A stretch of 64,000 nt of DNA from an uncultured Methanosarcinaceae archaeon (GTDB taxonomy: Archaea; Halobacteriota; Methanosarcinia; Methanosarcinales; Methanosarcinaceae): positions 704,001-768,000 of the forward strand of contig CAVTET010000001.1 in NCBI GenBank assembly GCA_963733675.1. The letters run 5' to 3'. How positions within the stretch are numbered: the first letter of the stretch is position 1; every line of letters starts with the position of its first letter. The translations under genes were made by a program, and so were the position numbers. The notes beneath the pieces are model-generated. The model worked only from the letters and a program-made list of their open reading frames with translations. It was not told the DNA's origin and ran no database searches. Of this stretch, positions 1,178-18,485 are shown one piece after another.

Positions 1178-1735
1178 TTATTTGAATAGCTTCAGGCCGG
1201 CAGCTTTTGCTTTCTTCATAAGCTCGGCATCATTCATTACTTCTCCTGGAGTATGGTATCCAGCTGCAACAAGAGTATCCTTTACATCCATTCCCATAAA
1301 GCGGGAAATTTGGCCTCCAAATTCTTCATAGACCCCTTTATATGCTGCAGGATCAGGCATACCCTGGGCTACCACAATTATGGCTTTTTTTCCACATGGA
1401 AGGCGGGTAGAATGATCTGAATTTATTAGGGAATAGCAACGATCCAAGAAGAGCTTCATCTGGCCTGAAAACTGACCAAAATAAATAGGAACCCCAAAAA
1501 TAACGCCATCAGCTTCTGCTAATTCTTTGAAAAGCTCTACAAGGTCATCTTCAAGTTTGCACTTCTCATGAGACTTACAGTAGTCACAGGCCTGACAGCC
1601 ACTGTACTTCATTTCGTTAAGGAGAAAAGTCCTAGTCTTTGCCCCAGCTTCGACCTCTCCTTCAAGAACCTGCTGGACGAGAGTGTTTGTGTTTCCATTT
1701 TTGCGGGGACTTCCTACAATACCTATAACTTTCAT
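1178..1735 (-). CDS. Iron-sulfur flavoprotein / NADPH-dependent FMN reductase (flavodoxin family)
   Basis: GSPRKNGNT FMN-binding start and compact CQACDYCKSHEKC cysteine motif typical of Isf. Confidence 0.9.
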   Translation of the reverse strand: MKVIGIVGSPRKNGNTNTLVQQVLEGEVEAGAKTRTFLLNEMKYSGCQACDYCKSHEKCKLEDDLVELFKELAEADGVIFGVPIYFGQFSGQMKLFLDRCYSLINSDHSTRLPCGKKAIIVVAQGMPDPAAYKGVYEEFGGQISRFMGMDVKDTLVAAGYHTPGEVMNDAELMKKAKAAGLKLFK

Positions 1736-2907: not shown

Positions 2908-3576
2908 TTATTTTATCAATCCTTTCTGGACATACCAATCATAATCATGAGCAAAACGCTACTTATTGAATTTTGCCAGCTGGCAAAAATATTCTGTTCG
3001 CTGACGATGTATTTCATCCTGGTCGGTATATTTGATTTTTCCGCAGATTGACTTTACCAGCTTCTTCCCAAGATCTTGCGCAGGCCCAATATAATTCTCA
3101 AGTGCAGAGAGGGCTCTCCCGATTATAAATCCAATGCTTCCAACAAAGGTAATGCCAAGATTTATGAGAACTCCATTCATATATTTCAAGATTTCATCGT
3201 CACCGCTTCCACCAGCTGTGCACACCGAGTACCTAAATTTTCCAGTCAGCATCCGGCAGTGAATTGCATCTGAAAGTCTATCTAAAAGGGCTTTCATTGG
3301 AGCCGGAACAGAGTTAATACAGTTAGGAGCACCAAGAACAACTCCATCAGCGTTCATAATTTTTCCAAATATCTCCATAAAATCATCAAATAAAGAACAT
3401 TCACCTGTAGCATAACAGGCTCCGCATCCAGTACAATATTCGATATTTAGCTTATAGAGATCTATAATCTCAGTTTCTGCCCCTTCAGATTAAGCACCTT
3501 TGATGACAGAATTTGCCAGTTTTGAGGTGTTACTTGCATTGCCCTATGGACTTGCATTGATTCCAATGATTTTCAT
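2908..3576 (-). pseudogene. Iron-sulfur flavoprotein (flavodoxin family) pseudogene
   Basis: MKIIGINASP*GNASNT...KGA*SEGAE...CTGCGACYATGEC...FNK*RFAHDYDWYVQKGLIK; in-frame stops TAG (3546), TAA (3492) and TAG (2961). Confidence 0.85.
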
Positions 3577-3748: not shown

Positions 3749-4705
3749 ATGCAAGCAATTGAAGTATCTCATCTTACCAAAAAATTCGGATCTCTCACCG
3801 CGGTCAATGATATTAGTTTCTCAGTTGGTGAAGGAGAAACCTTTGGGTTTTTGGGTCCCAATGGTGCCGGTAAAACTACTACAATTCGTATTTTGACCGG
3901 AGTATCAAGACCAACTTCTGGAACAGCAACCATTTTTGGCTATGATATTGAGCATGATACCATTAATGCAAGGCAATCCATGGGCATCGTATCCGAAAAT
4001 TCCAACGTTTACGATGATCTGACTGCATGGCAGAACTTGATGTTCTCCGCGGAACTCTATCATGTGGGACGAAATGAGAGAGAGAAAAAGGCTACCGAAT
4101 TGCTCAAGAAGTTCGAGTTATACGAACGTCTCAGTGATAAAGCGCACGGTTTTTCAAAGGGAATGAAAAGACGTCTGACCCTTGCAATGGGGCTTGTCAA
4201 CAGCCCACGTCTGCTGTTCCTGGATGAACCAACCTCAGGGCTCGATGTACAGAGTAACCTCATCATTCGTGAAGTGGTATCGGACCTCATTCTCAATGGA
4301 GTCACTGTCTTTTTAACAACGCACAATATTGAAGAGGCAAATGTCATGTGTGATCGAGTAGCTATCATCAATAAAGGGAATATCATTGCAATCGATGCAC
4401 CGGAATCTCTGAAAAAGACGTTTAAAGGTTCACAGTCGATTGAGGTATCTTTTGACCATAATTCCGTAGATCACCTGGACGAACTCAGCAGTCTCTCAAT
4501 GGTGAATGACGCACAAAAGGCAGGTGACAAGTTTAAGCTCTATACTGAAGATCCAGCTGAAGTTATTGATGCCTTAGTAGCCTATGCTCACGCGCATAAT
4601 CTTAAAATAATCAGTATTACTACTCTTGGCCCTAGCCTCGAGGATGTATTTGTAAAGTTGACTGGTCTGCAGCGGGCAGGTGATGGAATCCATGCAATCG
4701 ATTAA
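3749..4705 (+). CDS. ABC-2 type exporter ATP-binding subunit
   Basis: Walker A GPNGAGKTT, signature FSKGMKRRL, Walker B LLFLDEPT, H-loop LTTH, C-terminal PSLEDVFVKLTG. Confidence 0.95.
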   Translation: MQAIEVSHLTKKFGSLTAVNDISFSVGEGETFGFLGPNGAGKTTTIRILTGVSRPTSGTATIFGYDIEHDTINARQSMGIVSENSNVYDDLTAWQNLMFSAELYHVGRNEREKKATELLKKFELYERLSDKAHGFSKGMKRRLTLAMGLVNSPRLLFLDEPTSGLDVQSNLIIREVVSDLILNGVTVFLTTHNIEEANVMCDRVAIINKGNIIAIDAPESLKKTFKGSQSIEVSFDHNSVDHLDELSSLSMVNDAQKAGDKFKLYTEDPAEVIDALVAYAHAHNLKIISITTLGPSLEDVFVKLTGLQRAGDGIHAID

Positions 4706-5459
4706 TCATGCGAGATTGGTAAAACATCTTTTCTGTCAGATATCTGCTGCGTGGGCAATCGCCAAAAAAGACATGAGGATCTATTACCTCAAGCCAAATA
4801 TCATCGTTTCCGGCATCTTTTTCCCGCTTTTTATGTTCCTAGCCTTTGCCATTGGAAAGAACACCCCTCCAGGCACCCTAATCCCGGGATTGATCTCGAT
4901 TACTCTCCTGTTTTCGGCTTCATCAATAGAACCGGTTTCAATACCTATAGAAAGACGTGTTAAAACTTTCGAACGTTTGCTCTCAGCACCTATTTCGCTG
5001 TATTCGCTGGTATCGGGTGAGAGCCTGAGTGGATTTTTTTATAGTCTCGGCATCGCATGTCTTCCCCTTGTCATTGGCGTGATCATCTTCAATACAACTA
5101 TTGTAAATGCAACTGTCCTTGTGATTGCTATGATCCTCACAGCATTCTGTTTTGCCACGCTTGGGACACTGTTTGCTGCATACCCTACAGAAAATGTGGG
5201 TGAGGTCATGTCTATGCTTAATACAGTAAGGCTACCGCTCATCTTTATATCTGGTGTTTTTGTCCCGATATCTTCTATGCCTCAGATAGGCCAGAAAATC
5301 GCACTTATATCACCACTTACATATGGAAGTGATCTTATCGAGTATGCGTATACCGATAAATCGCTATTTCCACCTTTTATGGATATGGTGATGCTGTTGA
5401 TCTTTATCCTAATATTTCAGATAATAGCAAACTATCTTTATAAGACATTTAACGAATGA
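4692..5459 (+). CDS. ABC-2 type exporter permease
   Basis: Six hydrophobic segments; ERRVKTFERLLSAPI, ISGVFVPISSMP and SPLTY motifs; overlaps the ATPase stop. Confidence 0.92.
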   Translation: MQSINHARLVKHLFCQISAAWAIAKKDMRIYYLKPNIIVSGIFFPLFMFLAFAIGKNTPPGTLIPGLISITLLFSASSIEPVSIPIERRVKTFERLLSAPISLYSLVSGESLSGFFYSLGIACLPLVIGVIIFNTTIVNATVLVIAMILTAFCFATLGTLFAAYPTENVGEVMSMLNTVRLPLIFISGVFVPISSMPQIGQKIALISPLTYGSDLIEYAYTDKSLFPPFMDMVMLLIFILIFQIIANYLYKTFNE

Positions 5460-5644
5460 GGGTTAAAAAACTTAACTGGTTAAGATATCAAACAGTTAAG
5501 AAAAACACTCTCATAGTGAAATACTATTTTTGCTAAAAATAATCTTATTTAGTAGAATTCATCCTAGACCTACATTGTTGTAACGAGGGCCTCTTTCATC
5601 ATGGACTCAAAAAGATATTTATATCCATTTGACATGGAGAATTT

Positions 5645-7072
5645 GTGAAACAGGAAAACGATTTCATAGTTTTTCATGGTAATCTACAGCAATTAATGGA
5701 AAAAGTGGAAACGGGAGAAATGATCCCCAAGCTTCAGGCTTCACACTCCCCAATGTGCAAATTTTTTACTGCGTATTACGTTATCAGTGGGATCCGTCAT
5801 GTAGTTCCCCTGGTCCACGGTCCGACCGGATGTCCGCTTTACATGTCGGATTTTGTCAGGACACGTGAATGCTGCGAGATCCGTGGAGTTCCACTAGAAC
5901 CCACAGCCTGCACCTCCCTTGATGAAAGCCACATCATCTACGGGGGTGAGGGAAAACTCCTGGAAGCAGTAAAGGAAGCATATACAAAGTATCACCCAGA
6001 TCTCATCGTCATCCTCTCTTGTTGCTGCTCTGGGATTATCGGTGATGACGTCGAAAGTATTGCTCGTGAGGCAGAGAAGTTGGTTGGTTGCAGGGTGCTA
6101 GCGCTCCGCAGCGAAGGGTTTGGTGGAGATTTCCGAAGCGGCTATGAGGACGCGTTCAAGCTCATCATGGAGTTGATGGAGCCCCCAAAAACGAAAATGA
6201 AAGGGACGATCAATATCCTCGGGGCCCGTTGGGGCCCTTCCCCCACAGAGTTCAACTGGGACATGGATGAGATAGAGCGACTTCTTGGTGAAATTAGAAT
6301 AAAGATAAATGCCATCATCGCGGGAGGGTGCACCGTCGAGCAGATTAAGCATGCTCGGGAGGTCGAACTTAATGCTTCATGGTGCTTTGACTGGGGGCAG
6401 AAGCTGGGCGATCTGATGCAAGAAAGATTCGGAATCCCTTACAGCCGTACCGGGCAACCCTATGGCCCTGAGGCCACAAAGGAATGGCTGCTCGGCGTGG
6501 CAACACCTCTTGGTATGGAGACAATGGCTATTAAAGTGATCGAACGAGAGCTACAGGAAGTAGAACCGGAAATAGCATATCTAAGGCAAGCTCTCTCCGG
6601 AAAAACGGCTATTGTAGAGATATCGGAATTCCCCGGGCCGATACGAGCGCTTTCGATTGCAAGGATGGCAGCAGAGTTTGGTGCACATCCTGTCGTCATC
6701 AACGTTCATCCATATACGATCAAGGAGCGTATGCCCAGCATCAAGTTTCTCCTGGAAACCGGAGTTAACCCGGAGATTATCCTGACAAAAGGACTCTTTC
6801 GGCTAGGGAGCTTTCGGTCATCCAAAGAGACAGAAGACGAGCTAGAGTCAATTGTTAAGGAATATGATAACCCTATTTTCTTCGGAAACTCAGGCCGGTT
6901 TCCTCCCTGTCCAGTGGTGAACTTAACACTCATGAACCCGTCGTTTCAGCCCCAGTACGGCTTCCGGGGGATTAGGAATATCGCCGCTCTGGTCAGACAG
7001 GCACTTGAGAACAAAGATCTACCACGTTCGCGATTATTTAAGGGGATGCTCTATGGAACAAGGAAATTTTAA
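5645..7072 (+). CDS. Nitrogenase component 1-like protein, alpha/D-type subunit (not canonical NifD)
   Basis: PMC38, HGPTGC63, LDESHIIYGGE, SCC127CSGIIGDD, LNASWC247, PYG, QYGFRG; RBS GGAGA before the GTG start. Confidence 0.9.
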   Translation: MKQENDFIVFHGNLQQLMEKVETGEMIPKLQASHSPMCKFFTAYYVISGIRHVVPLVHGPTGCPLYMSDFVRTRECCEIRGVPLEPTACTSLDESHIIYGGEGKLLEAVKEAYTKYHPDLIVILSCCCSGIIGDDVESIAREAEKLVGCRVLALRSEGFGGDFRSGYEDAFKLIMELMEPPKTKMKGTINILGARWGPSPTEFNWDMDEIERLLGEIRIKINAIIAGGCTVEQIKHAREVELNASWCFDWGQKLGDLMQERFGIPYSRTGQPYGPEATKEWLLGVATPLGMETMAIKVIERELQEVEPEIAYLRQALSGKTAIVEISEFPGPIRALSIARMAAEFGAHPVVINVHPYTIKERMPSIKFLLETGVNPEIILTKGLFRLGSFRSSKETEDELESIVKEYDNPIFFGNSGRFPPCPVVNLTLMNPSFQPQYGFRGIRNIAALVRQALENKDLPRSRLFKGMLYGTRKF

Positions 7073-8411
7073 GGAAACGGTTGGGCCATCAGAGTCTTCC
7101 TCGGAGACGTGCACTGACCCCTACCTTCGCTGTGCTTTCAACGGTGCCGCCCTGACGGCCCTTGGAGTCTCTCGTTCTGCTCTGCTTGCACATTCTCCAC
7201 AAGGATGCGAGTATCTCGTCAACAATGCCTTTGCTTCGCAGGAGTGTGATTATATGGAGACAATGACCCTCTGTACCAAGCTCTGCGTGGACGAGATCGT
7301 GTATGGTGGAGAGGACATCCTTACCCGCACAATTCGGAAGGTAAAAGATCTCACGATCTCTGCCCTTTTCGTGCTTAGTGCATGTGGTCCCGAAATTGTG
7401 GGCGACGATATTGTAGCAGTATGTGAGGCCCTGCAACCAGAAATGAAGTTCCGACTCGTTCCAATTGAATGTGCCGGGTTCCGAGGATCGCAATACGATG
7501 GCATCGACATCGCGCTGGATACGATCCTAAAAAAGCTGGTAAAAGACGACGTAGAGAAGGTACCCGATTCGGTCTGTCTTGTTGCTCCCCACGCCAATGC
7601 CAACCCGACATGGCCGGCAGACCTTACATGGGTGAAACAGATTCTTTCTAGGATGGGCATTAAGGTTGTAGCCACGCTCACACACCAGACTCCGATTTCT
7701 GAAATCGAAAACATCGCATCTGCTGAGACCTCCCTCCTGCTGAGCCACGATGCTGGGCAGAAAGCAGCAGATTACCTTTTAACTGAGTATGGCATCGAGC
7801 AGATATGTCAAGGGATACCCCTTCCAATAGGGATGACAAACACGCAACATTGGTTGACCGTGCTGGGTGAGCGATTCGATGTGCTGAAAAGGGTGGAGGA
7901 GATAGTTGCAGAAGGCGAACGGATGGTGATGGCAACGTGCCGGCGCAAGTGGCCGATGGCGAGGTTCCTGTATAGGACTCCGACAGCGATTGTTGCCGAT
8001 GCAACGGTCGGAATCCCTCTAGTCCGGTTTGTTACCGAGGAGATGGAGATGACCCCTGAGCTCGTTGCCTTGTACACCTCACAGAGACCTACGCGGGAAC
8101 TGCTGGAGCGGGAACTCCAGAGCCTTGGTCTCAATCCGAAGATCATTTACGGAACAGACGTGTATAAAACACGGAAGAGTATTCGGGAGGTCAGGCCACG
8201 GGTTGTGTTCGGTAGCACCATCGAAAGGCATGCAAGCGAGGGACTTTCCGTGGCCTATGTTATTGAGATCGTTAGGACGATTCGCCAGTTTAGGATGATC
8301 AATCGGGAATACTTCGGATATACAGGCATATTGAACCTGTTCGAGTGTATTCAAAATGAGTGGACTATGGGATGGCGTTCAAAAGAAAGGAGATATGAAG
8401 CAAGGTGGTGA
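7053..8411 (+). CDS. Nitrogenase component 1-like protein, beta/K-type subunit
   Basis: PYLRC27, HSPQGC52, EIVYGGEDIL, SAC111GPEIVGDD, PLPIGMTNT..WL, VFGSTIERH, YFGYTG. ATG 7053 follows AAGGGGA and overlaps the upstream stop. Confidence 0.9.
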   Translation: MEQGNFKETVGPSESSSETCTDPYLRCAFNGAALTALGVSRSALLAHSPQGCEYLVNNAFASQECDYMETMTLCTKLCVDEIVYGGEDILTRTIRKVKDLTISALFVLSACGPEIVGDDIVAVCEALQPEMKFRLVPIECAGFRGSQYDGIDIALDTILKKLVKDDVEKVPDSVCLVAPHANANPTWPADLTWVKQILSRMGIKVVATLTHQTPISEIENIASAETSLLLSHDAGQKAADYLLTEYGIEQICQGIPLPIGMTNTQHWLTVLGERFDVLKRVEEIVAEGERMVMATCRRKWPMARFLYRTPTAIVADATVGIPLVRFVTEEMEMTPELVALYTSQRPTRELLERELQSLGLNPKIIYGTDVYKTRKSIREVRPRVVFGSTIERHASEGLSVAYVIEIVRTIRQFRMINREYFGYTGILNLFECIQNEWTMGWRSKERRYEARW

Positions 8412-8417
8412 AGGAAT

Positions 8418-9263
8418 ATGAGACAGATCGCTATCTATGGCAAAGGTGGAATAGGGAAGAGCACGATAGCTTCAAACCTGTCTGCCGCATTAAATACGAT
8501 GGGGCACATGGTAATGCAGGTTGGCTGTGATCCAAAGAGGGATTCGACAAGAATCCTTGCAGAGGGGAAGTTTATTCCCGCAGTACTGGAAGAACACCGA
8601 GAACAGCTTAGGTTAGGAAAAGATGAATATGCGATAAATCTCGACAATCTGGTCTTCAGATCACCCAGTGGGATTTACCTTGTCGAGGCGGGAGGACCGG
8701 AACCTGGTATTGGGTGTGCTGGTAGAGGCGTGCTGACAGCTCTGCAAATCCTAAAAGACCTCAAGGCTTTTTCTACCTACAACATTGACATAGCAATCTA
8801 TGATGTCCTCGGAGATGTCGTATGCGGTGGATTCTCGATGCCTATACGTGAAGGATTTGCGGAAGAAATCTATCTCATCTGTTCTGGCGGCTTCATGAGT
8901 ATCTATGCGGCAAATAACATCGCTAGGGCTGTGCAACGCCTAGCAAAAAGGGGGGATACCGGCCTGGCAGGGATTATCTGCAACAGCAATGGAAATGAAG
9001 CATTTGAGCATGCAGTCATCCCGGCTTTTGCAAAAAAGCTGGGAACCCCTTTTGTCCAATTTGTCCCCAGGAGTCCCGTGATCCAGGCATGTGAACTGGA
9101 AGGTAGACCTGTAGTGGAGTACGCCCCCGATTCACTGGAAGCGGAAATATTTCGGAAACTTGCAAAAGCGATAATGGAAAATGATTCACGTGTGATCCCA
9201 ACGCCAGTAAGCGACCTTCCAGAGCTTGAAATGATGTATCGTCAGCATCTGGTGAAGATATAA
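8418..9263 (+). CDS. NifH-like iron protein (nitrogenase reductase family)
   Basis: YGKGGIGKST, GCDPKRDSTR, EAGGPEPGIGCAGRGV and YDVLGDVVCGGF; both [4Fe-4S] cysteines are intact. Confidence 0.95.
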   Translation: MRQIAIYGKGGIGKSTIASNLSAALNTMGHMVMQVGCDPKRDSTRILAEGKFIPAVLEEHREQLRLGKDEYAINLDNLVFRSPSGIYLVEAGGPEPGIGCAGRGVLTALQILKDLKAFSTYNIDIAIYDVLGDVVCGGFSMPIREGFAEEIYLICSGGFMSIYAANNIARAVQRLAKRGDTGLAGIICNSNGNEAFEHAVIPAFAKKLGTPFVQFVPRSPVIQACELEGRPVVEYAPDSLEAEIFRKLAKAIMENDSRVIPTPVSDLPELEMMYRQHLVKI

Positions 9264-9302
9264 GAAATCAAGATATCAGATCATTTCACGGGTGTATTAT
9301 GC

Positions 9303-9935
9303 ATGAAATACGTCGATATCGACAGGATTTACCAGACAGTACCGCTTGATAAAATTCCCTGGAATAGTGAAGCACCCCCAGATAAGCTTGTTGAGCTGGT
9401 GCAAAGTGGAAAAGTCCGACCCTGCAAGACCATTGATCTCGGTTGTGGCGCTGGTAACTATGCAATATACCTGGCAGAGCGGGGATTTGAGGTAATAGGT
9501 GTCGATAGTTCACCCACTGTAATAAAGATCGCTACTGAAAATGCACAAAAACGAGGAGTCAGGTGCAATTTTATTGTCGCTGATCTTCTAGGTGACCTGC
9601 ATGAAGTTAAAGAGACATTTGATTTTGGCTACGACTGGGATTTTTTGCACCATATATTTCCAGAAGACCGGGGAAAATATGTAAAAAATGTGTATAATAT
9701 TCTGAAACCAGGAGCACAGTACTTATCAGTCTGTTTTTCTGAGAAGGATCCACAGTTTGACGGCATGGGTAAATACCGGAAAACCCCTATAGGAACAATA
9801 CTGTATTTCTCTTCGGAATCCGAAATACATGATCTTTTTTCACCTTATTTTGACATACAAGAACTGAAAACGATAGAAATCAAAACTAAATCTGTGTCAC
9901 ATTATGCAATTTATGTATTGTCTGAACGACGCTGA
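9303..9935 (+). CDS. Class I SAM-dependent methyltransferase (TPMT/TehB-like)
   Basis: N-terminal IPW, motif I IDLGCGAG, VIGVDSS, FDFGYDWDFLHH, LKPGAQYL. Confidence 0.9.
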   Translation: MKYVDIDRIYQTVPLDKIPWNSEAPPDKLVELVQSGKVRPCKTIDLGCGAGNYAIYLAERGFEVIGVDSSPTVIKIATENAQKRGVRCNFIVADLLGDLHEVKETFDFGYDWDFLHHIFPEDRGKYVKNVYNILKPGAQYLSVCFSEKDPQFDGMGKYRKTPIGTILYFSSESEIHDLFSPYFDIQELKTIEIKTKSVSHYAIYVLSERR

Positions 9936-10086: not shown

Positions 10087-10713
10087 GAGCTATGGTTGCC
10101 TAGGTGCCTGTGTAGAGCTGGGCTTTGGCGATGCATTATGGGAAGGTGTTAAATTCATGTCAACATTCTTTGTGAGGATGCAGAAAGCAGCGAGAACCCG
10201 GAAGCTTATTGTACAACTGTACAGCGCGAGAGCTAAAGCTCCTCACAGTGAACGCCTTCACAGAAACGCGGATAAAGCAAAGCGGTTCATGAACGTGTAC
10301 CTACTAATCACAAACATTGCTGAAAAATAAGTGATCTTCTCACCCTTAAGCAAAGTGAAACCCTCTGAAAGCACGCTTTTTGTGATGTTTGCTACAGACC
10401 CAATGCAGATCATCACGCTCGTCAAGCTGGTTGAAGCTATCCACGAAGGTACCGATCCAGTGTGGGTCCCAGCCAATGTGAGCCTGCCAGCAGATAAGGG
10501 TATTCGTGTATGAGGAGGCAATGAAGGAGCATCTGCAGGAAGTACTTGAGTACACGGACCTTGCCGCACTGGGGAACGTTAGAAAGACCAGCACAGCGAA
10601 CATTTAACGTTCGCTGTGCCGTTCTCACTCTTAGAGAAGATGGAAGAGGAGTAAAAAGTTGGTGTTTCAATAGCCCGATTTGGGAAGGGCTCGCTCAGAG
10701 CAATGAGGTGTAG
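10073..10713 (+). pseudogene. 5'-truncated DUF169 (COG2043)-family pseudogene
   Basis: YVDRESYGCLGA...ERLH...*VIFSPLSKV...DPMQI...ACQQI...EEAMKEH...TDLAA...LTFAVPFSLLEKMEE...SPIW across stops and frameshifts. Confidence 0.65.
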
Positions 10714-10718
10714 TGATC

Positions 10719-11501
10719 ATGACATACACAGATTTCAAAGAAATCGGGGCAAAGCTGAAGGCAGCATTCAGGCTTTCGACACGCCCTCTTGCTGTATACG
10801 GATCTGAAGTCCTACCAGCGAGCATTCCACCGATGACCAGAGTTAACCGGTGTTTTGCTGTCTCGATGTATCGGATGGCCACAGTAAACGAGATATCAGC
10901 GATCTATGTAAGTGCCGACATCAGTGAAGACTGCTGCCTCGGTGGGCTCTATCATATGGGATATATTCCAATACCTGATGAAATCAAGTATTTTGTATCG
11001 ACCGGCAGGAAAGATGTTCGTGGCGGGGCAGCAGAATACCTGAAAGCAGATCCGGAGCTGGTAGAGCGCTGCATGTTGTTGGCTGGACCGATACATCCAC
11101 CGGGAAAATATCTTATCGTTCAGGCATGTGAAACCCTTCCAGATCCTGGGCCTGCCATCAGATCCCTGTGTTGCTTTGGTACAGCCGAGCAAATACGTAA
11201 TATTGCGGCACTCATTCACTTCGATCGGGACGACCCATTTTCACCTGTGATCGTTCCCTGGGGATCAGCCTGTTCTACATATATCACATTCCCGGCTGGC
11301 CTTGCTGACAAAACACCGCTTGATACCGCATTCATGGGCCCGCAGGATCCCACACAGAACCATTCCCTGCCTCCAGAAATGATGGCGATAGGTATTCCTG
11401 TTGATATGGCCGAAAGAATGGAAAAAAATCTCGACGCTTCGTTTATCATTCGGAGACCGCAAGTGGCATTTCCCAATCATGAGAAGCAATTGAAACAGTA
11501 G
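10719..11501 (+). CDS. DUF169 (COG2043) family protein
   Basis: LSTRPLAVYG, RC, CCLGGLYHMGY, EYLKADPE, EQIRNIAALIHF, PWGSACS, GPQDPT and IP..M.ERME..LD.SF pattern; RBS GAGGTG. Confidence 0.75.
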   Translation: MTYTDFKEIGAKLKAAFRLSTRPLAVYGSEVLPASIPPMTRVNRCFAVSMYRMATVNEISAIYVSADISEDCCLGGLYHMGYIPIPDEIKYFVSTGRKDVRGGAAEYLKADPELVERCMLLAGPIHPPGKYLIVQACETLPDPGPAIRSLCCFGTAEQIRNIAALIHFDRDDPFSPVIVPWGSACSTYITFPAGLADKTPLDTAFMGPQDPTQNHSLPPEMMAIGIPVDMAERMEKNLDASFIIRRPQVAFPNHEKQLKQ

Positions 11502-12186: not shown

Positions 12187-12947
12187 TTAGATTAAGTGAC
12201 TGCATCTTAATAATATCAATACACCTATAGCAATGAGCACTAAACCAGCATTTCCCACATATTTAACATTCTTCTCGGAAAGCCCAATTTCGATATTAGT
12301 TTGTACTTTAGTCAAAACTATAAGCAATAAGCCTGCTATCACTAAAATAACACTTATTCCCTTAAGTAAGGTATCATTCGAATTTGGTGGTTGAGGCGTT
12401 GCCTTTGTATCTGTACCGTTGAGTTCTACCTTTCTTTGGGGTGGCACTGCAGGGATAGAACCTATAAACTGTTCAAAAGTCTTCGGAGCGTCCCCTACAG
12501 GCACGTTAGGTAGCCGCATTTCAGTTTTATCGTTGATTACTGCGACATATTTGTCATTTTTACATACTACATATACTTCTTTTCCATCAGGTGTGATCGC
12601 AACTCCATAAGGCCCATTACCTACAGAAACTGAAGTAATTTGGTTTGTTGCTGTGTCAATCACAGATACATTACTACTGTATTGGTTTACCACATATACC
12701 TTTTTTCCATCTGGGGTGACTGCAACTCCTATAGTTCCGAGTCCTACAGGCACAATGTCAATGACGCTGTATGTGATCGTGTTAATCACAGAGACTGAAT
12801 TGTCTTTTTGATTTGCAATATATGCATATGTATTTAGGGAAGAGGTACTTTGTGTAGCAGCTATCGAAGCAGACGAAAATAGAATTGAAAATAAAAGTGC
12901 GGTTACGATACTAAAGCTAGTAAATATAGTTTATTTATATTTTTCAT
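12187..12947 (-). pseudogene. YVTN beta-propeller surface protein with C-terminal TM helices, frameshifted in the signal peptide
   Basis: RBS AGGAG, ATG 12947 MKNINKLYLLALVS, then a 1-nt deletion before TALLFSILFSSASIAA...YAYIANQKDNSVSVIN; GVAVTPDGKKVYV repeats; two TM segments. Confidence 0.75.
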
Positions 12948-14267
12948 CAATACTACTCCTTTATTTAATTCCAAATCGCAAAATTTTGAGTATTATAATA
13001 ATAATCAAAAATCGTTATAATTTATAGAAAATAAAATTCCTTCATAAGTAGTAAAATTTTGCGCATTGAAAAACATATTTTGTTTTTTAATAGGATTTAT
13101 ATATATATTTAATAATCTTCTATCAAAGTGAAATTCTCTAAATTTGCAAAGTCTCACCAAAAAGTTGAAGGAACAGAAGCGAAAACTACCGAAGTAGAAA
13201 TTTTGCCATTAAAAATATATTGATTCTATTAGCAAGGACAATGTTTATGAAAAATATACATTTTTTTGGATATAGTATAACTTTTTATCGGATTTTACCA
13301 ATTTTTCGGGGAAAATAGTGTATTTTTATTGGTTTGTAGCTACGTTGTTTTTGGTAAAAACGATGCGTACCATCGGCTTCGAGTAAAATTAAAAGGCTTT
13401 TTAACCCAAAATTTAAAGAAAAACCATAGTTTTTTTGTGCTAAAATCTCTGCATTTTCTCAGCTTAATCCCAAATTAAACATTTTTTAGCAATTTCATTG
13501 GAGTTATCAAGTCCTGATTCATCTACAAATCTCAAATCAGCTTCACACCATTTTTTTAAAATATTCCCTTCAAGAGTTTAGTATCGTTGAAAGACAATGG
13601 CGGAATCAATGCCTTGAATCCGTTAGCAATAATCAGATAGTCCAGTAATCACCCAATAACTTCATAAAATTGATTTTGGTGGTACATCATTATTTTATCA
13701 AGATGGTTATAACATTTTATGTTAATGGATGCATTTTGAATCAGTTTTAATTTTTAGTCAAGAGTGTATATTATTTTACATTAGATGATTTATATTATAT
13801 ATAAAGGCATTTAAAACTACAAGATGTGATTAAACTGGAATTTAATCTTATTTGCAAGTTCTGGATTTGTAAAATGTGAGCTTGTTTCTTAATTAAAAAT
13901 TGATATCATAAGGACTTGGTAGAATTTACCTATGCGTTTCAAATACTTTTTTGTATTTACTGGACATGTAATCAATAGAAACTTATATATATCGAATATC
14001 TATGGAACCTCAAGTTTTCAAGCACATAGGCAGGAAAAATAGTGAGGTATTTTTCACTATTTATAATATTTCCTACCTAAATTATATAAAAATACGATTT
14101 CCTAAAAATTAATAAATTTAAGATTTTAATGCAATATTAGTGTTGGAATCAGCTCAATTAATAGCATGCTGGAAAGTCACTGTTATTTTGATTTTACTTC
14201 CGGCCCTTCAACAGTCTTTTTGCAAGTTTTTGTAAGTACCATCTAGGGTTTTTCAAAGTAGACACAG

Positions 14268-15404
14268 CTATTTCATATACTTATTTAGGAATTCGAACAC
14301 TTTATCCATATTTTCAGTAGTTCCGAATGGGTATCCATAATGACGTGTTCCGTTAAGTAAAGTAACGGGTACACCGTGACCTGCTCCTTCAAGTAATGTA
14401 AGGGTTACTTTATTTTGTCCGATTGCTTTTATGATTACAGCTGCAAGGTCAACAGATTGCTGCGTTGGAACTAGTGGATCCAGGGTGCCGTGCTGAATTA
14501 AAAATGGGGGGCACTCTGAAGTTATATAATTTGTAGGGTCTGCCTGTTTACACAGGTCCGGTACCTTTGAGACATTTTGCCCTAAATATCGTGATGGGAC
14601 AGAATATTTGGTATTATAAATATGAACTCCTTGTACTTTCTCTCTAAGTCCACTTTCTGTGAATTGTTTATCCATAACACAGAAATTTGTAGGCCCATAC
14701 CAATCAACTACTGCTGTTACATTATCCAAAACGTTTGCGTTGCCGAGAGATGTATCATAGCAATTATTTGTGCCACCTGTTGTGCCTGCAAGTGCAGCAA
14801 GATTTCCACCTGCTGAACTGCCCCATAGAGCAATCTTATTAGGATTTAAATTATATTGCGCAGCATTAACTTTAATAAAACGAATAGCTGCTTTTGCATC
14901 ATTTATTGCTGCTGGGAATTTAGCTTCGTCACTCAAACGATAATCAACAGTTATCACCGCATAACCATGATTTAAACCCTTAAGCATAGGAGCTGTATAT
15001 TGTCCACTTTTATTGCCCTCATAAAATCCCCCACCATGAAATGCTATAATCATAGGGAAGGGACCTTTTCCTTCATTTGACAGATATATATCAAGTTATT
15101 GTGTTTATGATTTAGTGGCATGAGCAATATCAGTGAATTTATTTTTCATGCTTGGTGGCGGTGATATTTTGTCTCCACATCTACATATTTGGTTGCCGAC
15201 TTTCAAGTTGCCGTTATTTTTCTCATTAAATAAACCACTATTCACATTTTCATTAAAGTTTTCGTTGAGACTTCCCTTATCAAAGCTCCCTTTTTCATTT
15301 CAGCAATTAGCTGCACTTACTGTAATCGTCACAGATGCCATAAAAAAGGCTACAAATAAAATACTCAGTGGCTTTTCTGTTCTGTGAAATATTTGTTTTC
15401 CCAT
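14268..15404 (-). pseudogene. Secreted alpha/beta hydrolase (esterase/lipase) pseudogene
   Basis: Signal peptide from ATG 15404; three in-frame stops before LDIYL...HGGGF; GSSAGG nucleophile, HGTLDPLVP and GAGHG retained. Confidence 0.8.
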
Positions 15405-15977: not shown

Positions 15978-16910
15978 TCAAACCTCTTTTTTTCCATGCT
16001 TGTACAGATACTGCTCGACAACACTTTTTGAACTATACCATATCTTTCCAATTTTTACCGCATCTAAAAGCCCCTGTCTGGACCGCAGGCTGAGATATTC
16101 TTGAGAATAAGGGGTTGCTGGAGCAAGTTCGTTGAGGGGTAGTAGTTCATCGATCCCGCCAGAAATAGAGAGGTATAGAGTCAGGTTTTCATTCACGGCT
16201 TTTGCAATAAAATTGGCAAATGAAGCGAGATTTCCCGCATCTGCAGTTTTAAGGGATTTGTAGTATTTTCCTCTTTCCTCTTTTTTGAGCACGACAGTAG
16301 GGTAATCTCTTGCTATCAAATATAGATTCATGAGGAGACGAGCTACTCTGCCGTTTCCGTCACTGAAAGGATGAATCTCAACAAACCTGTGATGCAGGAA
16401 TGAAGTTGTTTCAACAGGATGCTCTTTACTTTCAGCTATCTTCTCAATCAGTTCGTCCATCAGTTTCATTATCTTTGACCAATCAGGGGAAGCTTTTACT
16501 GCACCGGCTATCCTCACATTTCTGGTACGGTATCTCCCGGCATCATCAAGTATACCTTTAGTCACGATTTCATGGATTTTTTGAATTGTAATTTGGTCTA
16601 TTGAACGTTTTTTCTTCGCGAGCTCTTCCATTAGGTCAAAAGCTTTTGCGTTATTGCTTGCCTCAATATGCTCTCTTAGAGATTTTCCGCCAATGGTCAG
16701 CCCTTCTTCTAGAACGAGTTTTGTCTCCTGAAGTGTTAGTGTGTTTCCTTCTATAGCATTGGAGTGATAGGTGTGTGCCAACCTCATTTCGCCATGCAGC
16801 TTTCCTAAAGCATCTGCAGGAATGGGCCTCATAGAGTCAAGTCTCTTCATTTTTTCATCTATTCGTGCAAGAAGTTCTTTTTGAATCAAGGACGTATCGG
16901 TATTTATCAT
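15978..16910 (-). CDS. Fic-domain protein with C-terminal HTH-like extension
   Basis: Catalytic HPFSDGNGRVAR; N-terminal inhibitory motif SNAIEGN; C-terminal LNELA...YSQEYLSLRSRQGLLDAVKIGKIW. Confidence 0.93.
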   Translation of the reverse strand: MINTDTSLIQKELLARIDEKMKRLDSMRPIPADALGKLHGEMRLAHTYHSNAIEGNTLTLQETKLVLEEGLTIGGKSLREHIEASNNAKAFDLMEELAKKKRSIDQITIQKIHEIVTKGILDDAGRYRTRNVRIAGAVKASPDWSKIMKLMDELIEKIAESKEHPVETTSFLHHRFVEIHPFSDGNGRVARLLMNLYLIARDYPTVVLKKEERGKYYKSLKTADAGNLASFANFIAKAVNENLTLYLSISGGIDELLPLNELAPATPYSQEYLSLRSRQGLLDAVKIGKIWYSSKSVVEQYLYKHGKKEV

Positions 16911-17909: not shown

Positions 17910-18485
17910 TTATATATTGAGTTTTTTCAAAAGCCAGGCCATATTCTGGCCCAAAGTATGCATGGTTCGTATGCCTTCGTCATCTTTTTCCACATCTCCT
18001 TCATCAAGACCCATACCTATGTTCCAATAACTGGAACCCGGGATGATCATCTGAGTTATCGTAAATAAGTGGTTAATTGAATCAAAGACGTGAATTGATC
18101 CTGCACGTCTTACTGCAACAACAGCTGCGCCCACCTTACGCTTGAACAATCCACCATTTGCTCCGGCTACAAAGCCTGCCCTGTCTATTAGAGCTTTAAG
18201 TTCAGGAGTCAAGTCTGCAAAGTAGGTAGGAGAGGCAAGAATAATTCCATCGGCTTCAATCATCTTTTCTATGCAGTCGTTCACAATGTCTTTATCTATT
18301 ACGCACTTTTGATCTTTGTTTTCAACACATTTTCCACAGGCGATACAACCATGGATACTCTTCCCTCCTATATGCACGGTTTCTGTTTTGATTCCTTCCT
18401 TTTCAAGCTCAGCAAGGACATGCCTGACCAAGGTAGCTGTGTTTCCATCCTTTTTGGGGCTTCCATTAAATGCAACAACTTTCAT
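17910..18485 (-). CDS. Iron-sulfur flavoprotein (flavodoxin family)
   Basis: NGSPKKDGNT, CIACGKCVENKDQKC, ASPTYF, RRAG motifs. Confidence 0.92.
   Translation of the reverse strand: MKVVAFNGSPKKDGNTATLVRHVLAELEKEGIKTETVHIGGKSIHGCIACGKCVENKDQKCVIDKDIVNDCIEKMIEADGIILASPTYFADLTPELKALIDRAGFVAGANGGLFKRKVGAAVVAVRRAGSIHVFDSINHLFTITQMIIPGSSYWNIGMGLDEGDVEKDDEGIRTMHTLGQNMAWLLKKLNI

Follow-up and report, generated by a model that had tools for sequence, protein, structure and literature searches.

Recent work has shown nitrogen fixation-like (NFL) enzymes with nitrogenase-type clusters to catalyse C-S cleavage (methylthio-alkane reductase, MAR) and sulfonate cleavage (Isr), and the field is held back by the many uncharacterised clades and the few tractable hosts (PMC13474568). 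MAR, whose structure is 9FMG (PMC12552129), contains an [Fe8S9C] cluster besides its P-cluster and depends on MarB or NifB (PMC12552129; PMC13753814). Methanogens hold additional nitrogenase-like proteins without an assigned function (NifB preprint), and genes of the kind described here are the "VnfE/N-like" sequences of earlier phylogenies (Pi et al. 2022). Here we analyse a stretch of 64,000 nucleotides (hereafter the window) from an uncultured Methanosarcinaceae archaeon (GenBank assembly GCA_963733675.1, contig CAVTET010000001.1, positions 704,001 to 768,000 of the forward strand), in which three adjacent genes, D, K and H, encode two nitrogenase-like large subunits and an Fe protein. We consider it probable, at about 0.55, that this cluster encodes a self-contained ATP-driven reductase with a P-type and a NifB-derived metal cluster, often accompanied by a thiol/halide-type methyltransferase.

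Gene content, ligands and phylogenetic place

D, K and H (Table 1) lie in intact frames on the forward strand, with zero internal stops. The K frame opens with a TTG at 7005; read from the ATG at 7053, K has the length found in related loci and in the NCBI record of Methanosarcina acetivorans and fits the residue numbering of a previous, sequence-only reading of the window, overlaps D by 20 nt and ends 6 nt before H. In Pfam searches, PF00148 matched D (E 2.4e-69, 234.6 bits) and K (E 5.2e-74, 249.9 bits) far above the gathering cut-off of 28.6, and PF00142 matched H (E 1.1e-92, 310.8 bits, gathering cut-off 25), by which the three proteins are members of the nitrogenase superfamily. The sequence-only reading had described three tightly coupled genes for a two-subunit nitrogenase-like component and a complete Fe protein, and this description held.

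None of the nif, vnf, anf or cfb equivalog cut-offs was reached by D, K or H in an NCBIfam scan. The top match of D was nifE (154 bits vs. a cut-off of 505), and the catalytic-subunit models scored 121 vs. 654 (nifD), 67 vs. 823 (VNFD), 66 vs. 874 (ANFD) and 50 vs. 427 (nifK). H gave 333 bits on nifH (cut-off 394) and 331.6 on F430_CfbC (cut-off 402), and D gave 44.7 on the CfbD model methan_mark_13 (cut-off 268.4); with these scores and two different large subunits, membership in CfbCD was rejected. At the protein level, H is 50% identical to the NifH of its own genome, 46–47% to VnfH-type proteins and 44% to CfbC.

C38, C63 and C127 of D align with cysteines of the genome's own NifD and NifE and are kept in 111/112, 112/112 and 112/112 family sequences, while C27, C52 and C111 of K align with cysteines in the NifK of the same genome and are conserved in 21/21 sequences; we take these positions to be the P-cluster ligands of nitrogenase. 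They agree with the description in PMC3464626, and all six cysteines listed in the sequence-only reading were found at the numbers given there. C247 of D, kept in 112/112 sequences, aligns with the FeMo-co cysteine of NifD (Cys275) and with the corresponding cysteine of NifE; the column of His442 holds Thr in the D of the window, His in the own NifD and D2, and Asn in the own NifE. The ligand pair of a bona fide NifDK, VnfDK or AnfDK is thus incomplete, with Cys275 present and His442 absent. A P-loop, switch motifs and two cluster-binding cysteines define a complete Fe protein, and H has all of them: a P-loop at residues 8–15, CDPK at 37, CAGRG (Cys100), DVLGDVVCGGF (Cys136) and the switch motifs, Cys100 and Cys136 being both [4Fe-4S] cysteines. 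The place outside Nif/Vnf/Anf, the kept P-cluster cysteines, the Cys275 equivalent and the absent His442 together assign the family to the Group IV NFL ("green") class as described in PMC13474568 and PMC3464626. Beyond the ligands, D has the motif N353-x-H355-P356 and C229 in common with VnfE, and K has C20, C74 and C124 in common with VnfN. Invariant cysteines of the family's own are the CCC triplet 126–128 and C89 in D, and C78 and C296 in K, so that the extra invariant cysteines of K are, in all, C20, C74, C78, C124 and C296.

The main tree was calculated with IQ-TREE from 30 rows (LG+C20+F+G4), with CfbD_own left out for its long branch in a 55-row tree; supporting trees were built with FastTree (116 and 52 rows) and as a quick IQ-TREE run (55 rows). 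Two long-branched rows of the 52-row tree (L102_VnfD and L102_Nlike) were disregarded there and omitted from the main tree. In the main tree, the D family was monophyletic (100/99) and separate from the VnfE clade (100/100); both grouped with P0121/P0270 at 98/97, and their direct sister relation received only 82/59. The Mar-like and the NifD/NifE/VnfD clades were placed elsewhere, and the three other trees gave the same picture. P0236, with 453 bits to MarD (9fmg_A), is the anchor of the Mar-like clade, which the starred branches part from the D family; the NifE of the window's genome falls with NifD, at a distance from the family. For K, the 52-row FastTree recovered a sister relation to a VnfN from a vnf operon (SH-like support 99, 37% identity). 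Pairwise, D gave 110.5 bits against MarD 9fmg_A and 112.7 against Clostridium NifD, and H gave 271.7 against MarH. Membership of D in the MarD clade and membership of the pair in the VnfEN scaffolds were both rejected, the former on the distinct Mar-like clade, the latter on the separate clades and on a gene position that is never that of a vnf operon.

The whole family forms one cluster in a library clustered at 50% identity, and the next full-length representatives are 39% (P0121), 36% (P0122) and 33% identical; the record names of the nearest cluster representatives gave no informative annotation. Genes of the P0122 type were found in 80 metagenome loci; in 19/21 long ones, they and an N-like partner follow H, two PII and D-G-K genes, and nifB often comes next. 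Neighbours in one of these loci (L102) pass the NCBIfam cut-offs for nifH, VNFD, vnfG and nifB. In the vnf operon of genome G130, the E gene groups with P0122 and the N gene with the K of the window. A metagenome scan with P0121 alone returned zero loci, and P0175, which represents the next sister clade, had no PDB relatives at E <= 1e-20. On these alignments and trees, the family appears to stand beside the VnfEN clade, nested in neither VnfE nor VnfN, and its large subunits would be better called E-like and N-like, because their nearest relatives are the VnfE and VnfN of vnf operons. The names D-like and K-like used in the sequence-only reading should be given up accordingly, while its statement that the cluster matches no nif, cfb or mar arrangement agrees with both the unreached cut-offs and the place outside the Mar clade, and a nesting in VnfEN or MarDK, which it had named as evidence against itself, was not recovered in the trees.

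NifB linkage, neighbourhood and distribution

Within the 64-kb window, no nifB, PII, E/N, G or marB gene lies beside D-K-H. Elsewhere in the same genome lie a nifH...DKEN set and a second nitrogenase set, along with cfbCD, a broken PF00148 fragment and a stand-alone nifB (361 bits). A radical-SAM (S-adenosylmethionine) NifB-like gene overlaps the end of H in 2/2 Anaerolineae loci (TIGR01290, 273 and 256 bits, core domain), and three Chloroflexota genomes have a NifB-like gene directly after H. In one of them (G499, locus L050), this D-K-H-B locus contains the sole two PF00148 genes, the sole strong NifH-type gene and the sole NifB-like gene of the genome; in another (G500), K-H-B lie on one contig (L158, C661:10013-13043) and D alone on another (L159/L052, C251). 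The D of G500 has an N-terminal extension of ~170 aa. In genome G178 (family f12), the PF00148 genes are this D-K pair and a CfbD-type match only, and nifB is present; no nitrogenase is therefore there to be served. With B linked in Chloroflexota and nifB carried elsewhere in methanogens, the unit is D-K-H plus NifB, and it has the gene content of marBHDK and nfaBHDK in another order. Judged from the gene content of these genomes, it would work without a nitrogenase. The claim of the sequence-only reading that accessory genes are missing therefore stands for the window itself, and fails for the genome, where nifB lies elsewhere, and for Chloroflexota, where a NifB-like gene is joined to the operon. 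NifB is generally retained by methanogens for other L-cluster sites (NifB preprint; PMC12176620; preprint 10.64898/2026.07.03.736320), which would explain why archaeal loci carry no B of their own.

Other nitrogenase-related genes were noted alongside. The second set of the window's genome (H, D, K; G000:C4:161418-166419) clusters with the Anf-type D of G130 in the tree and has no neighbouring E/N genes. The PF00148 fragment (G000:C12:21645-22495) has in-frame stops, lies near a NifX-like piece (C12:17369-17692) and looks like a decayed nitrogenase-related locus. L156 (G130:C1:2522880-2525389) is a nitrogenase-like pair in which an open frame of 764 aa precedes one of 428 aa, and may be of the fused H-E plus N type of PMC3464626. 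L157 (G154:C1:706750-707865, family f8) is a PF00148 frame of ~400 aa that groups with P0224 and P0235 near NifD/E.

Table 1 Features of the D-K-H cluster and its surroundings in the window
Feature	Coordinates	Strand	Remarks
ABC-2 exporter, DrrA-like ATPase and permease	3749..5459	+	ATPase 3749-4705, permease 4680-5459; directly upstream of D
Putative archaeal promoter, AT-rich spacer before D	5460..5644	+	TTTATATC ~30 nt ahead of GTG start
Alpha subunit D, VnfE/NifD-like	5645..7072	+	475 aa, GTG start, PF00148
Beta subunit K, VnfN/NifK-like	7053..8411	+	452 aa from ATG, PF00148
Fe protein H, NifH-like ATPase	8418..9263	+	281 aa, PF00142
SAM methyltransferase, class I, TPMT/TehB/thiol-halide type	9303..9935	+	210 aa, 39 nt after H
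DUF169 protein	10713..11501	+	262 aa, PF02596 E 2.3e-27

Neighbours were counted in 36 loci including the window (L069 duplicates L042) and in 12 further genome regions. The neighbourhood survey suggested in the sequence-only reading found the order D-K-H in 24/24 loci with all three genes and in 10/12 of the regions, the other two being interrupted by a contig edge or having no H within the stretch. No nitrogenase genes of the D/G/K type stood beside the cluster in any of the 36 loci or 12 regions. The methyltransferase was present in 13/36 loci and 4/12 regions, in three archaeal families, and is likely an accessory gene of the cluster. It matches the Pfam family TPMT over residues 16–201 as well as Methyltransf_25; its PDB relatives are 6mro (a methyltransferase of M. 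acetivorans), thiol methyltransferases, a methyl-halide transferase and TehB, and weak NCBIfam matches to BchM/ChlM (46 bits) and CpaM remained far under the cut-offs. The DUF169 protein, found in 6/36 loci in total, is 69–91% identical to cluster-near copies in 5 other loci and is a possible accessory that has apparently moved along with D, K and H. A literature search found no paper joining DUF169 and nitrogenase, and the DUF169 papers gave no function; an AlphaFold2 model from a 7-row alignment was unusable (mean pLDDT, the predicted local distance difference test, 36.4). In a Methanoregula metagenome-assembled genome (MAG), two distinct DUF169 genes (24% identical) lie side by side by the cluster (L036, 7461-9079, reverse strand).

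The ATPase of the upstream ATP-binding cassette (ABC) exporter scored 330.8 bits on TIGR01188 (drrA), over the cut-off, and also matched PF01061. Close copies of the exporter (88–95%) occur only in nearby Methanosarcinaceae loci and distant ones in 3 Methanoregula-type loci, which makes its link to the cluster weak. Further neighbours among the 36 loci were ABC-2 permeases (8), FMN_red flavoproteins (7) and carriers of the major facilitator superfamily (4). Three FMN_red paralogues surround the cluster in the window (1178-1735; 2959-3378, truncated; 17910-18485; all on the reverse strand), and such flavoproteins could supply the Fe protein with electrons. No cysteine or methionine synthase was found among the neighbours scanned by Pfam, and the Chloroflexota flanks contained housekeeping or unannotated genes and no clue to a substrate. 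Archaeal promoters have a recognisable TATA-box pattern, and from reading the sequence, TTTATATC is a candidate for one.

Farther downstream, the region of a beta-propeller-like open reading frame (12187-12789, reverse strand, and 12629-13000) attracted many contigs from the RNA libraries, and these showed loose ends and back-joints, as would a repeat common to other organisms. A BD-FAE-type alpha/beta hydrolase (14268-15053) and a Fic-domain protein (15978-16910), both on the reverse strand, have a host-like GC content and do not recur beside the cluster in other loci.

The cluster is no orphan, as the sequence-only reading had called it. The family has 528 homologues at E <= 1e-20 in a database clustered at 90% identity, the best 120 of which are all at least 65% identical and come from sources named Methanoregula, Methanomicrobiales, Methanoculleus, Methanocella paludicola (there named "nitrogenase associated protein"), Dehalococcoidia, Bathyarchaeota and Acidoferrales. 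Scanning species genomes yielded 35 loci in Methanosarcina(ceae), Methanoregula(ceae), Methanomicrobiales and Chloroflexota. In the genomes sampled, D occurred in 5/150 others of the window's family, all of its own genus (5/34), and in 26/401 of the phylum, including 14/24 of family f8. Four proteins of the G130 locus are identical letter for letter to records of M. acetivorans C2A, namely AAM05041.1 ("nitrogenase associated protein E"), AAM05042.1 ("nitrogenase associated protein N"), AAM05043.1 ("Nitrogenase (iron protein)") and the methyltransferase AAM05044.1, and some cluster members bear the label "VnfE" at JGI (Joint Genome Institute). A literature search, with subscription papers (e.g., North 2020, Boyd 2011) and supplements outside it, found no publication studying the D-K-H cluster. 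The family is hence an already known yet unstudied lineage.

D, K, H and the DUF169 gene have a GC content of 0.48–0.51 (0.46–0.55 at third codon positions) vs. 0.358 for the genome; the DUF169 gene by itself has 0.49, and the methyltransferase has 0.40. The GC of the cluster is close to that of its flanks in Methanoregula loci and ~0.10 above them in Methanosarcina loci. In a FastTree phylogeny of 39 family D proteins, the six from Methanosarcina(ceae) formed one clade (SH-like support 91) nested in a 19-row Methanoregula(ceae) crown (support 95), with Chloroflexota basal. From tree and composition we infer that Methanosarcina acquired the cluster from Methanoregulaceae. Compared with Methanoregula, identity is ~92% for protein and 78–79% for nucleotides; therefore, the genes have been under purifying selection and the transfer was not recent.

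Four metatranscriptome runs from two studies contained contigs ~95–98% identical over D, K, H and the methyltransferase, and one contig of 2,089 nt spans 7334-9378, from K through H into the methyltransferase. These contigs are assembled and show presence, not strand or level. Some spacers had zero depth in some runs, and parts of the window were uncovered by RNA-library contigs (e.g., 1802-2202 in X11 and X13), a hint that the RNA libraries are not plain DNA. By their labels, the DNA and RNA runs in which the sequence occurs are from peat and soil; the small-share runs X18-X20 were left out of account. The four genes are thus present in peat RNA libraries; a lack of transcription, which the sequence-only reading had also named as evidence against itself, is countered by the contigs over D, K and H as far as presence goes, DNA carry-over being possible.

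Proposed function and competing explanations

In the reductase that we favour, an H dimer with a [4Fe-4S] cluster would pass electrons, with ATP hydrolysis, to a catalytic component, predicted to be an alpha2-beta2 tetramer whose subunits come from the same stock as the V-nitrogenase scaffold VnfE/VnfN. A P-type [8Fe-7S] cluster would be held by the six cysteines at the subunit interface, and a NifB-made [8Fe-9S-C]-type cluster on alpha-Cys247 would be the catalytic site, as in MAR; NifB would be supplied from a stand-alone gene in methanogens and from the operon in Chloroflexota. The adjacent thiol/halide-type methyltransferase and the exporters may handle the reduced product or a precursor, and the whole cluster would be an accessory unit that spreads horizontally among wetland anaerobes. 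These two kinds of neighbour are a weak hint of small compounds of sulfur, selenium or another heteroatom, and a compound of this kind is our favoured guess for the substrate, albeit one more likely wrong than right. The lack of an assigned substrate, as in the sequence-only reading, stands. A bolder scenario, which we hold to be rather doubtful, is a scaffold turned enzyme: the VnfEN lineage would have given rise to an independent reductase that has a NifB-dependent L-cluster and a dedicated Fe protein, working with the methyltransferase and exporters in a reduce-methylate-export route for a sulfur, selenium or other heteroatom compound.

Several points weigh against an enzymatic role. The closest relatives of the large subunits are scaffolds, not enzymes, and the N-x-H-P motif and extra cysteines are common to the family and the scaffold VnfE/VnfN. 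D has Thr in place of the His ligand of Nif, and MarD likewise has a His ligand (H428) that the D of the window is without (2026 review, PMC13474568). The P-type and NifB-derived nature of the clusters is predicted from ligands and gene linkage, and sequence alone cannot tell cluster types apart. No substrate-related neighbour is conserved across lineages (36 loci and 12 regions), and the methyltransferase occurs in only 13/36 and 4/12 of them and in 0/3 Chloroflexota loci. The cluster is dispensable and decaying in some Methanosarcina: the D of G071 (C1:647187-648155) has 5 in-frame stops (4 TGA and 1 TAA), and in a Methanosarcinaceae MAG (L056, 10001-11800), fragments of D are directly followed by the methyltransferase, K and H being missing. 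Contigs from RNA libraries can contain DNA carry-over. In R. rubrum, MAR activity was not obtained from NFL systems other than IV-C (PMC13753814), and a Mar-like substrate is therefore not favoured. Finally, the enzyme role is a prediction from sequence.

Among the alternatives, a cofactor maturase survives best, and we still judge it unlikely. An E/N-like scaffold with its own Fe protein and NifB would here process an [8Fe-9S-C] precursor for a non-nitrogenase recipient, which in methanogens could be the L-cluster sites of the activation complex of methyl-coenzyme M reductase (MCR) or of Mtr; L-cluster-like clusters do occur outside nitrogenase in methanogens (PMC12176620; preprint 10.64898/2026.07.03.736320). 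The sister position to VnfE/VnfN with its common motifs, nifE as the top NCBIfam match of D, the public names "nitrogenase associated protein E/N" and "VnfE", and the link to NifB would all fit a scaffold. However, a family present in only 26/401 genomes of the phylum cannot serve universal MCR or Mtr sites, and it also occurs in Chloroflexota, which are expected to be without MCR and Mtr. Moreover, no recipient gene is conserved among the neighbours (36 loci, 12 regions and the Chloroflexota flanks). As for a hand-over to VnfDGK of the kind made by VnfEN, G178 and G499 have no nitrogenase to take the cofactor. MAR and Fe-only nitrogenase, in addition, build their cluster in place without a scaffold (PMC13753814).

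A reductase of the methylthio-alkane type, cleaving C-S bonds of volatile organic sulfur (e.g., dimethyl sulfide) for sulfur acquisition in sulfate-poor peat, would be a special case of the reductase favoured here. The ligand logic and the need for NifB are those of MAR, a thiol-type methyltransferase adjoins H, the sequence-bearing runs come from peat and soil, and both D (110.5 bits vs. MarD 9fmg_A) and H (271.7 vs. MarH) resemble their Mar counterparts. Yet the match of D to MarD does not exceed that to Clostridium NifD (112.7 bits), and D falls outside the Mar-like clade, the anchor of which (P0236) reaches 453 bits; with sulfur-assimilation genes absent nearby in the scanned loci and MAR activity absent in clades other than IV-C (PMC13753814), we find this substrate improbable.

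It is very improbable that the cluster encodes a reductase of tetrapyrrole or other cofactor biosynthesis (of the CfbCD, DPOR or proposed Group VI kind; DPOR, dark-operative protochlorophyllide oxidoreductase) with the methyltransferase acting on the same cofactor. Methanogens are rich in modified tetrapyrroles, and one Anaerolineae locus has a HemN/ChuW-like radical SAM gene upstream, but the BchM/ChlM (46 bits) and CpaM matches of the methyltransferase are weak and far under the cut-offs, and the genome already has cfbCD. Such enzymes use [4Fe-4S] clusters, fewer cysteines and no NifB (review PMC13474568), whereas all six cysteines, the Cys275 equivalent and a NifB linkage are found here. 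A cryptic nitrogenase, fixing N2 as proposed for the Group IV-A Nfa of Endomicrobium, would suit the P-cluster cysteines, the Cys275 equivalent, the nitrogen-poor peat and the occurrence in a genome without nifDK, and is nevertheless hardly credible given the missing His442 equivalent, the lack of PII, NifV or E/N genes nearby (36 loci, 12 regions), scores far under every equivalog cut-off, the nif and second nitrogenase sets of the window's own genome, and Methanocella paludicola, treated as lacking nitrogenase in its genome paper (PMC3146512).

The favoured ATP-driven reductase would require only D, K and H together with NifB, and an orthologue set is available in the genetically tractable M. 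acetivorans C2A. Methanogens of peat and wetlands, which drive methane emission, carry the family in abundance; its place next to VnfEN is relevant to scaffold-catalyst descent within the nitrogenase family, and the finding bears on the roles of NifB-made clusters beyond nitrogen fixation. Should the scaffold-turned-enzyme scenario be true, the module would be moving between methanogens of peatlands, archaea of the Bathyarchaeota type and Chloroflexota, its activity might yield volatile methylated species or hydrocarbons in wetlands, and, CfbCD aside, it would be the first NFL enzyme of archaea to combine a complex cluster with a new reaction.

Comparison with known systems

CfbCD (IV-B) resembles the cluster as a methanogen NFL system with a NifH-like partner (H reaches 332 bits on CfbC), but CfbD forms a homomer of one subunit type and binds a [4Fe-4S] cluster, and a separate cfbCD lies on contig C3. 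NfaBHDK (IV-A) and IsrBHDK (IV-F) are likewise B-H-D-K NFL sets in anaerobes. By the descriptions in the papers only, Isr departs from the P-cluster cysteines and its B is not NifB-like, whereas here the cysteines are complete and B reaches 273 bits on nifB. NifEN provides the best NCBIfam match of D, keeps Cys275 without His442 and works with NifH; it differs in that D scores only 154 vs. 505 bits, the own NifE groups with NifD and the family is not part of a nif operon.

The nearest relatives are VnfE and VnfN, which are 36–40% identical to D and 34–39% to K, have the same six cysteines and the Cys275 equivalent, and have N-x-H-P, C229 (alpha) and C20/C74/C124 (beta) in common with the family. 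In contrast to the family (0/48), VnfEN stand behind vnfH-I1-I2-D-G-K in 19/21 loci, often with nifB after them. The family, for its part, has its own Fe protein and is present in nitrogenase-free genomes, and the two clades are reciprocally monophyletic.

MarBHDK (Group IV-C, PDB 9FMG) is likewise two-component and ATP-driven, with a six-cysteine P-cluster and an [Fe8S9C] cluster made by NifB/MarB without an E/N scaffold, and its minimal set is B, H, D and K; the pairwise score to D is ~110 bits. The present family belongs to a different clade, has the order D-K-H(-B) with B unlinked in archaea, no second-ligand His and no sulfur-assimilation neighbours, and is archaeal and from Chloroflexota, whereas MAR is found in Proteobacteria and Firmicutes. 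Of the MAR minimal set, D, K and H are adjacent here, and B, not in the window, is present in the genome and adjacent in Chloroflexota.

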